Below, piece after piece: positions 31,645-55,634 of a stretch of 64,000 nucleotides of DNA. The position numbers and the translations under genes are program-made. The notes beneath the pieces are model-generated. The model was given only the letters and a program-made list of their open reading frames with translations. It had not been told where the DNA came from and made no database searches. Each line of letters starts with the position of its first letter. The first letter of the stretch is position 1. The stretch covers positions 416,001 through 480,000 of the forward strand of contig CM000434.1 in NCBI GenBank assembly GCA_000165345.1. The letters are read 5' to 3'.

Positions 31645-32057
31645 ATGAAAAATAAAATAAAAGCTTTAGCGACGTCTAATTCCTCAATAGAAAACAATAA
31701 TAAAGTATTCAAACAATGCAGATTAATCGGGACAGTGCTTTTCGGGACTTTAGCAGGAATTTTGGGGTTTAAGGGATTTTCAGGTAAGTCATCTTATGAT
31801 TATTAATATTCCTATTAAACTTCTGTTTTAGGCATTATGTTCTATATTTACTCCTTAATAACTACTTTAATCATCATAGTACTGAAGATAAGAATTAATA
31901 AGTGCAATCACTATTTTGACACGTTTAATGAAGTATTAGGAATTGGTGATTACTTTCTAGTAAGTTCTCAGAAAATAAATATAAATAAATGACTAATTTT
32001 TAGAGTTTTATTCTTTTTTGGTCGATTTCATATTGTATTTGCCACATTTACTATTGA
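31645..32057 (+). CDS. EMC6: ER membrane protein complex subunit 6 (EMC6/TMEM93), 3 exons: 31645..31783, 31832..31959, 32004..32057; absent from the ORF track
   Basis: Spliced product MKNKIKALATSNSSIENNNKVFKQCRLIGTVLFGTLAGILGFKGFSGIMFYIYSLITTLIIIVLKIRINKCNHYFDTFNEVLGIGDYFLSFILFWSISYCICHIYY* (106 aa) aligns along its length with human EMC6 (...[82 protein letters not shown]). Introns of 48 and 44 nt, both GTAAGT...TTTTAG, phases 1 and 0. Confidence 0.7.
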
Positions 32058-32242
32058 CTTAGTTTATCAAGGCTCAAAAAGATGAATAGGCATTCTCAGC
32101 ATCTTTAGAAAAAAAATGGCGGAATAAATCTTATTTGATGGAAAGTAGGTCATTCAAGTAATAAATTTACAGAATTTAAATACCTGACAGTCTAATAAAT
32201 TAGATACATTTCATATTAGTACTGGTTAAATTGGCCACATAT

Positions 32243-32249
32243 GGCGGGA
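32243..32249 (+). promoter_or_regulatory. E2F-like GC box (ATGGCGGGAC) about 185 nt upstream of the RNR R1 ATG
   Basis: GGCGGGA in an otherwise AT-rich spacer. E2F-type GGCGGGAAA/TTTGGCGC boxes are the established dominant upstream motif class of DNA-replication genes in Cryptosporidium-like apicomplexans. Position and target gene (S-phase RNR) fit. Confidence 0.4.
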
Positions 32250-32270
32250 CCCCACATGGAAAGCTAATCT

Positions 32271-32281
32271 ATTCCCCACTT
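32271..32281 (+). promoter_or_regulatory. ATTCCCCACTT element upstream of RNR R1 (149 nt before the ATG); member of a recurring TCCCCAC(T) promoter motif
   Basis: Same core in sense orientation at 20705..20715 (ACTCCCCACTT, 144 nt upstream of the kinesin ATG at 20859), 26696..26704 (minus-strand ATTCCCCAC, 158 nt upstream of the kinesin ATG at 26538) and 54367..54377 (CGTCCCCACTT, 211 nt upstream of the METTL16 ATG). A second CCCCAC lies at 32251..32256. Each copy sits 10-25 nt from a GC box (GGCGGGA; poly-C/CGC at 20683..20696; ACCGCG at 26673..26678; CGTCGCGG at 54400..54407). Confidence 0.35.
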
Positions 32282-32429
32282 AATTGTGTGGAAATGTGCT
32301 CGTAACGCCCCACCGAAGTGAATGGAAAATTTGTTTTAGTATTTTTTGTCGCATGCTCGAACACTAAATAAGGTTAAAACAACTAATTCGTAATATTAAT
32401 TGGGTCTTAAATTCCAATAATCATAAATA

Positions 32430-34841
32430 ATGTATGTGGTGAACAGAAAGGGTGAAGAGGAGCCTGTATCATTTGACCAGATTCTTAGCAGAATCACTAA
32501 ATTATCATATGGACTTCATCCACTTGTTGACCCAGCGAGGGTTACTCAAGCAGTGATAAATGGTCTATATAGTGGAATCAAAACATCTGAATTGGACGAA
32601 CTTGCTTCGCAAACTTGTGCATATATGGCAGCTACCCACAATGATTTCTCTAAACTCGCTGCTCGGATATCGACTTCTAATCTACACAAAAATACTTCTT
32701 CTGATATTGGTGATGTTGCATCGCAACTATATAATTTTAAAGACAATCAAGGTTGCCCTGCTCCTTTAATTTCAAAACCTGTTTATGATTTTATCATGGA
32801 AAATAGAGAAAGAATTAATTCAAAAATTGATTTTTCAAAGGATTTTGAATACGATTATTTTGCCTTCAAAACTCTAGAAAGATCCTATCTTCTTAAAATT
32901 GACAACAAAGTTGTGGAAAGACCACAACATCTTCTGATGCGGGTCTCTTGTGGTATTCATTGTGGTGATATTGAAGCTGCACTTGAAACATATGAGTTGT
33001 TATCGCAAAAATATTTTACTCATGCAACACCCACACTCTTTAATTCAGGCACTCCACGACCTCAAATGTCATCTTGTTTTTTACTCAGGATTCCAGAAGA
33101 TTCAATAAACGGTATCTTTGACACACTAACTAAATGCGCAAACATTAGTAAGACTGCGGGTGGTCTTGGGGTGGCAGTGAGTAATATTAGAGGAACTGGT
33201 TCATATATTCGAGGAACAAATGGGAGATCTAATGGATTAATTCCGATGCTGCGCGTTTATAATGACACTGCTAGGTATATTGATCAAGGTGGAGGGAAGC
33301 GTAAAGGTGCCATTGCAATTTATTTGGAGCCGTGGCACGTTGATGTTGTAGAGTTTATTGAAATCAGGAAGAATCACGGAAAGGAAGAGATGAGATGTCG
33401 CGATCTCTTTCCTGCCCTTTGGGTTCCTGATCTGTTCATGGAAAGAGTTGAGAAGGATCAAGATTGGACTCTAATGTGCCCAGATGAATGCAGGGGATTG
33501 CAAGATGTTTGGGGCGATGATTTTAAGAAGCTATATGAAGAGTATGAGAAACAAGGCCGTGGAAGGAAAACGATGAAAGCGCAGAAACTTTGGTTCTTAA
33601 TCTTACAGGCTCAAATTGAGACGGGGACACCATTTATTTGTTATAAAGATGCTGCAAATAGCAAAAGTAACCAGAAAAATTTGGGAACTATTGTTTCAAG
33701 TAACTTATGCACAGAAATCATAGAATACACTAGCACGGACGAAGTTGCCGTCTGTAATCTGGCGTCTATTGGCCTTCCAAAATTCGTTGATAAAAATAAC
33801 AAGACGTTTGATTTTGATAAGTTAAAAGAAGTTACGAAGGTGATTACGAGGAATTTGAATAAATTGATTGACGTTGGATATTATTCTCTCAAAGAGTGTA
33901 AAAAATCGAATTTAAGACATCGTCCATTGGGGATTGGCATTCAAGGGCTCGCAGACTGTTTTATGATGCTTCGTATGCCGTACGAGTCTGAGGGAGCTAA
34001 GAAGTTAAATAAACAAATTTTTGAAGTTATCTATTATGCAGCTCTCGACGCTAGCTGTGAGCTTGCAGAAAAATACGGGCCATACGAAACATATTCCGGT
34101 TCGCCTGCGAGTAAGGGTATTTTACAATTTGATATGTGGGGAGTTACACCAGACTCTGGACTTTGTGATTGGGATTTGCTTAAAGATAGGATTTCCAAAC
34201 ATGGTATTCGTAATTCTCTATTAATATCTCCAATGCCAACAGCATCCACTTCGCAAATTTTAGGTAACAATGAGAGTTTTGAGCCATTTACCTCGAACAT
34301 TTATCATCGTAGAGTACTATCTGGTGAGTTCTTTGTAGTAAATCCGCATTTGCTAAATGATTTACTAGAGCTTGGGTTATGGGATGATAGGCTTAAGCAG
34401 AATATTATTGCAAATAATGGCAGTATTCAAAATATACTTACAATTCCGGAAGATATACGCGAGCTTTATAAGACTGTATGGGAAATTAAGCAAAAGACAG
34501 TAATTGATATGGCTGCAGATAGGGGTCCATATGTTTGTCAATCGCAATCTTTGAACATTCATATGGAAAATGCTAACTTTGCAAAGTTATCATCTATGCA
34601 TTTTTATGGTTGGAAAAAAGGTCTAAAAACAGGCATTTATTATTTAAGGACCCAAAGCGCGACACGCCCCATACAATTTACAGTAGATCAACAACTCCTG
34701 AAATCGGAAACTAAAGAAAAGGATTCACTGGAGACTAACAAACGACAAGCACTCGAACCAGAGGCACAAAAGCTCATCGCTTGCCCATTAAGACCGACAA
34801 ATATGAAGGATGATGAAGAATGTATGATGTGTTCTGGTTAA
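32430..34841 (+). CDS. Ribonucleoside-diphosphate reductase large subunit (RNR R1)
   Basis: 803 aa. N-terminal ATP-cone ([23 protein letters not shown]), catalytic-site NLCTEI and active-site Cys/Glu context ([12 protein letters not shown]), [12 protein letters not shown], and the C-terminal redox-shuttle CxxC tail (ECMMCSG*). Textbook class Ia R1. Confidence 0.95.
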
Positions 34842-54313: not shown

Positions 54314-54587
54314 TTTGATTCCTAAGTTATATAATTGATTTTTATTGCTGAACTTTGTAACTATTTCGTCCCCACTTAAGAAAAAAAATTGTTATACAAC
54401 GTCGCGGCATCATGAACTTTTATAATTGCGATGGATTATTTACCATTTGACACCTACAGTGTGAATAACCAAATACTGTTTATAATACAAAGAGTTTTTA
54501 AAGATAATGTATTTTTACTGTTTATTTATATTGCTATCTTCTTATCAACAACTATTGTCACAATTTTTATTTTAAGAATACTTTTAA

Positions 54588-55634
54588 ATGGGCCAAGCTA
54601 ATAATAAAAATCAACAAAAAAAAGCAACTCAACTCCATCATAGAAATGTGCATGCCAATGATGATTTTTTATTTTTATCTGAAAGATACCCTGAGCTTAA
54701 AAAATGTATCAAAATAATAAATAATAAAGTACGTATTAATTATAACCCCGCAGCATTACACTGTATTTCGAAAGTATTGCTGCATTACAGATATAATATT
54801 AATTGGGACATACCGGATAAATTTCTAATACCAACAATACCTTCGAGAGCTAACTATGTACACTTTATTTCAGACCTGTTAACTCCAGAACACTTTTATA
54901 ATACGGAAAAAGTAAACGATGAAGGATTAAGAAACGATCTAAAGACAAAAACATGTATTGAAGGTGGTACAGATGTTTGTTTTTCTGAGCTTATTCCTAG
55001 AGGAAAACAAGTTTTGGGGTTTGATATAGGAATTGGTGCAAACTGCATATTTTCTCTTCTATGCAACAAAATTTATTCTTGGAATATGATCGGCTCAGAT
55101 ATTTCAATTGAAAGCCTGAGTGTTTCAGACACTATTATTAAAAAAAACAATCTTTGTGGTTGTATAAAACTTTTGCATCAAGAAAAACCAGAATATATAT
55201 TATTCGGGATACTTGACAAAACTGAAATAGAAGACTTGAAATTCTCATTCACTATCTGTAACCCTCCATATTATGATTCAGTTGAAGATTCAGAAATTAA
55301 TATGCACCCTGCTCGCTTCAGGAGTTGTCAAAATTACGAAATAATAACTCATGGAGGTGAATCTCAATTTATCTTGAAATTGTATTTCGAAAGCAAGAAT
55401 TTTTCGAAAAGGGTAATCTGGTACACTTCTCAAGTTTCGAAACTAAAAAATTTGAAATTTTTGAAAAGTGTTCTTAAAAAAGAAATCATTAACAATGAAT
55501 TAAAATCACTTAGATACACTACTCTAAAACAAGGGAAGCATGACAAGTGGGTAATTGCATGGAGCTTTTTTGAAAAGGAAGAGAGAACCTCAATATTAAA
55601 GTTTCTCAGAAACAATAAAAACATGAGCTCTTGA
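54588..55634 (+). CDS. METTL16-like RNA N6-adenosine methyltransferase (U6 snRNA m6A methyltransferase family)
   Basis: PAALHCISKVLLHYRYNINWDIPDKFLIPTIPSRANYVHFISDLL aligns with METTL16 [42 protein letters not shown]. SAM motif I GFDIGIGANCIFSLL vs GIDIGTGASCIYPLL. Catalytic NPPY/F (FTICNPPYY vs FCMCNPPFF). C-terminal KWVIAWSFFEKE vs RWALAWSFYD. Confidence 0.75.
   Translation: MGQANNKNQQKKATQLHHRNVHANDDFLFLSERYPELKKCIKIINNKVRINYNPAALHCISKVLLHYRYNINWDIPDKFLIPTIPSRANYVHFISDLLTPEHFYNTEKVNDEGLRNDLKTKTCIEGGTDVCFSELIPRGKQVLGFDIGIGANCIFSLLCNKIYSWNMIGSDISIESLSVSDTIIKKNNLCGCIKLLHQEKPEYILFGILDKTEIEDLKFSFTICNPPYYDSVEDSEINMHPARFRSCQNYEIITHGGESQFILKLYFESKNFSKRVIWYTSQVSKLKNLKFLKSVLKKEIINNELKSLRYTTLKQGKHDKWVIAWSFFEKEERTSILKFLRNNKNMSS

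Follow-up and report, generated by a model that had tools for sequence, protein, structure and literature searches.

The motif TCCCCAC upstream of RNR R1 and kinesin genes of Cryptosporidium parvum corresponds in sequence to the opposite strand of the known G-box

The closest described relative of the element discussed here is the G-box of Cryptosporidium parvum, given as 5'-G.GGGG-3' or 5'-G[T/C]GGGG-3' and documented in a series of studies (PMC1779779, 2007; PMC2832001, 2010; PMC3734150, 2013; PMC4117751, 2014; PMC12246861, 2025). [quoted passage not shown] A G-rich motif was described upstream of 11 of 12 heat-shock genes by Cohn et al. in 2010. Oberstaller et al. (2013) distinguished two G-box-like motifs, DTGTGGGG (motif 2, 38 clusters) and KKGRGGGGRR (motif 6, 16 clusters), found the G-box over-represented genome-wide upstream of 54 expression clusters holding 839 genes, and showed on protein-binding microarrays that the ApiAP2 domain of cgd8_810 binds 5'-G.GGGG-3' (PMC3734150). 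Oberstaller et al. (2014) added cgd2_2990 and cgd1_3520 as G-box binders in vitro and defined the motif as 5'-G[T/C]GGGG-3' (PMC4117751). In the 2025 review the G-box stands among the established Cryptosporidium motifs (Table 3 of PMC12246861).

Two further systems are comparable. The G-box of Plasmodium falciparum, (A/G)NGGGG(C/A), likewise has a G-rich hexamer core, is read by an ApiAP2 protein, lies close to promoters and is often paired (Militello 2004 and Campbell 2010, as related in PMC3734150); according to the same source, it is found upstream of heat-shock and ribosomal-protein genes and is bound by PF13_0235. The regulons of the two parasites differ, as the ribosomal-protein genes of C. 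parvum use E2F (PMC3734150, PMC4117751), and the G-box-binding AP2 domains of Plasmodium and Cryptosporidium are only distantly related (PMC4117751). At the present locus the targets are RNR and kinesins, in contrast to the heat-shock genes of the P. falciparum G-box. PF13_0235 is now called PfAP2-HS. The other system is that of the C. parvum E2F/DP sites (TTTGGCGGGAAV, [C/G]GCGC[G/C]), in animals the RNR, DHFR and TK genes being under E2F control. The box GGCGGGA at 32243 fits the E2F core and lies upstream of a classical E2F target gene; however, this likeness is limited to the RNR promoter, the other three GC boxes of the locus are non-canonical, and TCCCCAC itself is no E2F site.

The window, that is, the whole analysed stretch of 64,000 nucleotides of C. 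parvum chromosome 6, has about 30% G+C and is dense in genes. Four TCCCCAC sites noticed in the sequence-only reading are present at 20705-20715 (+), 26696-26702 (-), 32273-32281 (+) and 54367-54377 (+), and the genes downstream of them encode, by Pfam, two kinesins, RNR R1 and an RNA methyltransferase, all exact matches to C. parvum chromosome 6 proteins. The genes concerned, including those on the other side of divergent promoters, are as follows.

20868..23012, plus strand: kinesin 1 gene cgd6_1900, Pfam kinesin motor domain, E = 2.6e-64
23761..26538, minus strand: kinesin 2 gene cgd6_1920, Pfam kinesin motor domain, E = 1e-93
26774..28588, plus strand: gene of a 604-aa hypothetical coiled-coil protein, an alternative or additional target of the kinesin 2-side G-box
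32430..34841, plus strand: RNR large subunit gene cgd6_1950, Pfam ATP-cone, Ribonuc_red_lgN and Ribonuc_red_lgC, E = 8e-219, exact match to CAD98486
49283..54313, minus strand: gene of a 1676-aa hypothetical protein, its ATG 57 nt from the fourth G-box
54588..55634, plus strand: METTL16/YbiN-like RNA methyltransferase gene (the fourth gene), Pfam Methyltransf_10, E = 1e-58

The motif had been left unrecognised in that reading. Taken from the other strand, it is GTGGGGA, the published C. parvum G-box. All ten sites listed read GTGGGG on the complementary strand, and the C-run upstream of kinesin 1 reads GCGGGG. RNR site 1 and the kinesin 2 site (CCCCACAT) fit motif 2, DTGTGGGG, exactly, and TCCCCACTT, on which attention had centred, is a flank variant of the G-box core with two 3' flank positions off consensus (CCCCACTT versus CCCCACAH). 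Judged by its letters, TCCCCAC is the opposite-strand reading of an element already known. Besides the core hexamer, the sites share with the published G-box their upstream intergenic position, their frequent occurrence in several copies and their co-occurrence with AP2_1 (TGCATG) and E2F-like motifs. There is no essential difference; the genus-wide conservation and the fixed tandem at RNR, on the other hand, were not found in the G-box papers cited here. A literature search for these gene identifiers and for GTGGGG/CCCCAC in Cryptosporidium returned nothing beyond the known G-box papers. The main outcome is the removal of a false lead, as a motif without a place turned out to be the established G-box on the other strand; what the analysis adds is the genus-wide footprints of four promoters and the conserved layout of an E2F box and a triple G-box at RNR R1.

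The RNR promoter was in fact part of the original G-box material. The large subunit (CAD98486) corresponds to cgd6_1950, which was included in the nucleotide-metabolism set of the 2007 study as RDPR with an upstream region of 627 nt (PMC1779779). Counted from the ORF ending at 31806, this region corresponds to positions 31807-32429 of the window and holds all three RNR sites described below. A 12-bp motif common to RNR, dCMP deaminase and DHFR-TS was reported there (PMC1779779), and it is equated with the G-box here through the statement made in PMC3734150.

Regarding frequency, TCCCCAC occurs 8 times in the 64-kb window as opposed to 1.6 times expected, a count reached in none of 100 shuffles, and 4 of the 8 matches fall in coding ORFs. 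The core CCCCAC occurs 13 times (3.9 expected), with 6 of the 13 matches outside ORFs, in the non-coding 12.6% of the window, where shuffled non-coding sequence gives 0.26; the non-coding excess is about 23-fold (Poisson P of about 3e-7, binomial P = 3e-3). These six copies, all of them at most 232 nt upstream of an ATG, are spread over four intergenic regions only: the region upstream of kinesin 1, the divergent region between kinesin 2 and the 604-aa gene, the region upstream of RNR with three copies, and the divergent region between the 1676-aa gene and the methyltransferase gene. The same intergenic enrichment recurs in 11 orthologous loci. A further CCCCAC match, at position 100, lies inside a prenyltransferase-like ORF that runs off the window. 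Searches at the motifs with Rfam (gathering thresholds) and ARAGORN revealed no non-coding RNA or tRNA gene, and the possibility of such a gene beneath them was rejected on these grounds. A G-quadruplex was dismissed by inspection, there being only three G-runs, 24-34 nt apart.

Orthologous loci were collected through a series of kinesin 2 orthologues, all from Cryptosporidium, ranging from 95% down to 38% identity. The syntenic loci compared were those of C. hominis, C. meleagridis, chipmunk genotype I, C. ubiquitum, the Logan contig SRR31860986, C. canis, C. felis, C. xiaoi, C. ryanae, C. serpentis and C. muris, and gene order is kept throughout these 11 loci besides C. parvum. Orthologous promoters of as many as 11 further species of the genus, reaching as far as C. 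muris and C. serpentis, retain the TCCCCAC sites within intergenic sequence that is largely unalignable. Because the sites are retained genus-wide amid unalignable intergenic DNA, they are under purifying selection and functional; by its intergenic enrichment and its conservation, TCCCCAC is a genuine promoter-proximal cis-element. The flanks are freer than the core: over all orthologous sites, position -1 is T in 18, A in 10, C in 6 and G in 2 cases, and position +1 is T in 16, A in 13, C in 6 and G in 1. Since both positions vary, T flanks are not obligatory, and a motif definition that demands them was ruled out. The kinesin 2 encoded on the Logan contig shares 63% identity with the C. parvum protein, which puts the divergence of this contig between those of C. 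ubiquitum and C. canis; the kinesin 1 and kinesin 2 G-boxes are both retained in it.

The RNR R1 promoter holds the largest number of sites, arranged as follows.

32116..32124, plus strand: distal E2F-like box ATGGCGGAA, found in C. parvum, C. hominis and chipmunk genotype I
32243..32249, plus strand: E2F-type box GGCGGGA, directly adjoining RNR G-box site 1, core of motif 4 TTTGGCGGGAAV
32250..32255, plus strand: RNR G-box site 1, CCCCAC with GTGGGG as its minus-strand reading, preceding the ATG by 180 nt; its context ACCCCACAT fits motif 2 DTGTGGGG
32273..32281, plus strand: RNR G-box site 2, TCCCCACTT, the instance first noticed
32308..32313, plus strand: RNR G-box site 3, GCCCCACC, not noticed before
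32349..32357, plus strand: GCATGC (AP2_1-like) box between the RNR G-boxes and the ATG, kept from C. parvum to chipmunk genotype I

Two CCCCAC copies had been claimed for this promoter; that there are several is correct, and their actual number is three (32250, 32274 and 32308). In an alignment of ten Cryptosporidium species, site 1 is present in all ten and forms the sole invariant block of six columns upstream of the ATG, and site 2 is likewise present, as tCCCCACt, in 10 of 10. Across the orthologous promoters, site 1 always reads aCCCCACa/c and site 2 always tCCCCACt. Site 3 is found in the intestinal clade, C. parvum to C. canis as well as C. ryanae, except in C. xiaoi, where it is degenerate. 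The only strand-specific 6-mers with G or C that are common to five diverged lineages in this promoter are ACCCCA, TCCCCA, CCCCAC and CCCACT. All 27 CCCCAC copies in the ten RNR promoters are on the sense strand and none is antisense, a count that is weak evidence because orthologous copies are not independent observations; across species they lie 122-216 nt from the ATG. The layout of an E2F box followed by three G-boxes keeps its order and, among the intestinal species, also its spacing, with 23-27 nt between sites 1 and 2 and 28-34 nt for the other interval. The E2F-type box adjoins site 1 in six species; GGCGG(G/C)(A/G) is kept from C. parvum to C. canis, and CCGCGG is found instead in C. 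xiaoi and C. ryanae. In C. parvum, TATGGCGGGACC fits motif 4 at 10 of 12 positions, with the full GGCGGG core.

Some minor features of this region may be mentioned here. Between G-boxes 2 and 3 lies a block, ATTGTGTGGAAATGTGCTC (32283-32301), kept from C. parvum to C. canis, of which GTGGAAA is also present in C. xiaoi and C. ryanae. Its opposite strand holds CACACA, which is AP2_2-like, and together with G-box 2 the block makes up an imperfect inverted repeat, CCCCAC-TTAATT-GTGTGG. Further upstream, a small EMC6 homologue with an intron extends from 31645 to about 32089 on the plus strand and separates RNR from the ORC-like gene; the annotations of C. meleagridis and C. xiaoi include it, and a simple ORF list shows only fragments of it. 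Because this gene occupies part of the interval, the true intergenic region upstream of RNR measures only about 340 nt. Public annotations merge RNR with the neighbouring glycosyltransferase in C. hominis UKH1 (L001 1-4105) and in C. canis (L006 1-4141), and EMC6 with RNR in C. ubiquitum (L004 1555-4782); these are likely gene-model errors.

The two kinesin genes present different arrangements.

20685..20695, plus strand: C-run (C9) CCCCCCCCCGC, GCGGGGGGGGG on the minus strand, earlier taken as the GC box of kinesin 1; G-box-like G[C]GGGG, motif 6 KKGRGGGGRR
20705..20715, plus strand: kinesin 1 G-box ACTCCCCACTT, 153 nt from the ATG at 20868
26689..26701, plus strand: CATGCAT joined directly to GTGGGG, an AP2_1-like site with a G-box, within the divergent promoter of kinesin 2 and the 604-aa gene

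Upstream of kinesin 1 the site itself is present, and its distance of 144 nt needs correction, as the codon at 20859 is TTG and the first ATG, at 20868, gives 153 nt. The G-box persists as ACTCCCCACTTTTTGA, or in a closely similar form, in 10 of 12 species and is degenerate, as CCCCTC, in C. xiaoi and C. ryanae; all orthologous CCCCAC copies are on the sense strand, and C-rich tracts at the position of the C-run are kept in most species. The G-box at 26696 lies 158 nt from the kinesin 2 ATG and 72 nt from that of the 604-aa gene. There, CATGCATGTGGGG is kept in 11 of 12 species, C. muris, C. serpentis and C. felis included, and CCCCAC and TGCATG are the only 6-mers common to five diverged lineages. 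Binding to TGCAT as well as to the G-box is reported for the AP2 domain of cgd1_3520 (PMC4117751), so that the fused CATGCAT-GTGGGG at 26689-26701 could be a single composite site.

The fourth promoter is divergent as well.

54367..54377, plus strand: fourth G-box CGTCCCCACTT, between the 1676-aa gene (minus strand) and the small ORF and methyltransferase gene (plus strand)
54400..54411, plus strand: CGCG-type GC box CGTCGCGGCATC near the fourth G-box, kept as GCGGCATC in C. canis
54431..54601, plus strand: unannotated 56-aa ORF MDYLPFDTYSVNNQILFIIQRVFKDNVFLLFIYIAIFLSTTIVTIFILRILLNGPS, hydrophobic in its C-terminal half and closer to the fourth G-box than any other plus-strand ORF

In the alignment with C. 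canis the corresponding position retains the G-box as GCCCCCACC; in C. parvum the distances from the G-box are 57 nt to the ATG of the 1676-aa gene on the minus strand and 56 nt to the 56-aa ORF. The proposed sense orientation upstream of a named gene consequently stands for RNR and kinesin 1 and is ambiguous at 26696 and 54370; each of these two sites lies between divergently transcribed genes, which makes its target ambiguous too.

In regard to the GC boxes, the sequence-only reading had combined a GC box and TCCCCAC into one recurring composite element. A GC-rich box is indeed found within 10-30 nt of each of the four sites, but the boxes differ in kind, so that the composite holds only loosely: the E2F-type GGCGGGA at RNR, the C-run CCCCCCCCCGC at kinesin 1, at kinesin 2 the CGCG-type ACCGCGTA (at 26672, along with the CATGCAT abutting the G-box), and at the fourth site CGTCGCGGCATC, also of CGCG type. 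Motif 4, TTTGGCGGGAAV, is E2F-like with the core GGCGGG (PMC3734150), and the boxes at 20685, 26672 and 54400 do not fit it. A single composite element was ruled out by these four kinds of box. E2F-like boxes are widespread among the promoters of this window and are the most widespread of all motifs in the genome-wide survey, where the co-occurrence of the G-box with AP2_1 is also reported (PMC3734150); the adjacency of GC boxes therefore does not make a new composite element.

We consider it probable, at roughly 0.78, that the G-box at these promoters serves as a promoter-proximal binding site for ApiAP2 transcription factors. One to three G-boxes lie about 120-230 nt upstream of the start codon beside other known types of site, namely the E2F/DP-type GGCGGGA at RNR R1 and the TGCATG AP2_1-type site at kinesin 2/604-aa. 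From the binding studies cited above, we infer that a G-box-binding ApiAP2, with cgd8_810, cgd2_2990 and cgd1_3520 as candidates, may occupy the double-stranded site just upstream of the core promoter and that, in combination with whatever factor binds next to it, it would determine when or how strongly the adjacent gene or genes are transcribed; the partner would be E2F/DP at RNR and a TGCAT-binding AP2 at kinesin 2/604-aa. As cgd8_810 is reported to be specific to the female stage (PMC12246861), which fits poorly with a replication gene needed in asexual stages, the relevant factor may be one other than cgd8_810. Another point against the ApiAP2 reading is that ATAC-seq peaks of sporozoites show no enrichment of AP2 motifs, although sporozoites do not replicate. 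The strict sense orientation at RNR and kinesin 1 does not follow from a simple orientation-free enhancer model, and the ApiAP2 reading leaves it unexplained.

A link of the motif to S/M-phase genes, suggested by RNR and the two kinesins, is not supported. G-box clusters peak at every in vitro time point (PMC4117751), and the two kinesins belong to different expression clusters, 24 and 42. The other cell-cycle genes of the window, an ORC-like gene, BCCIP and a D123 homologue, have no G-box upstream. It is conceivable, though rather improbable, that the sub-types aCCCCACat and tCCCCACtt, set in a fixed same-orientation tandem abutting E2F/DP at RNR, represent a genus-wide module of AP2 and E2F co-operation in replication and mitosis, with the sub-types read by different AP2 paralogues. 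The RNR promoter offers a compact and well-defined test case for the dissection of AP2 and E2F functions, C. parvum now being genetically modifiable.

Among the rival explanations, the one that survives best, unlikely as it is, holds that the G-box is read in vivo by a non-AP2 factor, for example a C2H2 zinc finger, and that the AP2 binding seen on microarrays is incidental. C2H2 zinc-finger proteins bind CACCC/GT boxes in other eukaryotes, and CCCCAC(C) is similar to CACCC-type boxes. Such proteins have been discussed as possible regulators in Cryptosporidium, and the female specificity of cgd8_810, the best-studied G-box AP2, would suit this explanation (PMC12246861), as would the open-chromatin (ATAC-seq) peaks of sporozoites, a non-replicating stage, in which AP2 motifs are not enriched. 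It has to contend with three independent AP2 domains that bind G[T/C]GGGG on protein-binding microarrays, with the expression of at least one G-box-binding AP2 at each time point at which the G-box clusters peak (PMC4117751), and with the fact that no zinc-finger binding to the motif is reported in Cryptosporidium.

We regard as less likely still that TCCCCACTT with its GC box forms a distinct and hitherto unrecognised S/M-phase promoter module, separate from the generic G-box and possibly read by another paralogue than the one acting at CCCCACAT sites. RNR and the kinesins are plausible as replication and mitosis genes, the site-specific flanks at RNR sites 1 and 2 are conserved over long distances, and the E2F-type box at site 1 in six species and the uniform sense orientation of the RNR and kinesin 1 sites point the same way; yet flanks vary once all orthologous sites are considered, and the GC boxes are of four different kinds. 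Nor do the genes themselves behave as one group, with the kinesins in different expression clusters, the fourth site serving an RNA methyltransferase, a small ORF or a hypothetical protein, and the ORC-like, BCCIP and D123 genes devoid of the motif, and the G-box clusters cover all time points and many functions (PMC3734150, PMC4117751).

An action of the C-rich motif in RNA instead of DNA, in which a protein of the poly(C)-binding type would recognise it in the 5'UTR of the sense transcript, is highly improbable. The sense-strand position of all 27 RNR copies, interdependent as they are, and of all kinesin 1 copies would agree with it, but intergenic regions are very short in this genome and the sites precede the ATG by 120-230 nt. 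The kinesin 2 and fourth sites belong to divergent promoters, where only about 57-72 nt separate them from the ATG on the opposite side, and the AP2 domains were shown to bind double-stranded DNA (PMC3734150, PMC4117751). Finally, functionless C-runs arising by chance in AT-rich DNA, which could account for the 4 of 8 TCCCCAC matches in coding sequence, presumably just codons, were ruled out as an explanation of the motif by the shuffles (0 of 100 reaching the observed count), the roughly 23-fold non-coding excess and the retention of sites at orthologous positions within unalignable intergenic DNA.

The 56-aa ORF beside the fourth G-box overlaps the ATG of the methyltransferase gene by 14 nt in a different frame; it belongs to no Pfam family, and its exact sequence is missing from a collection of 15 billion proteins. 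In C. canis the ORF is likewise open (L012 2841-3014, plus strand) and about 75% identical, and it probably either encodes a small membrane protein missed by annotation or is a conserved upstream ORF.
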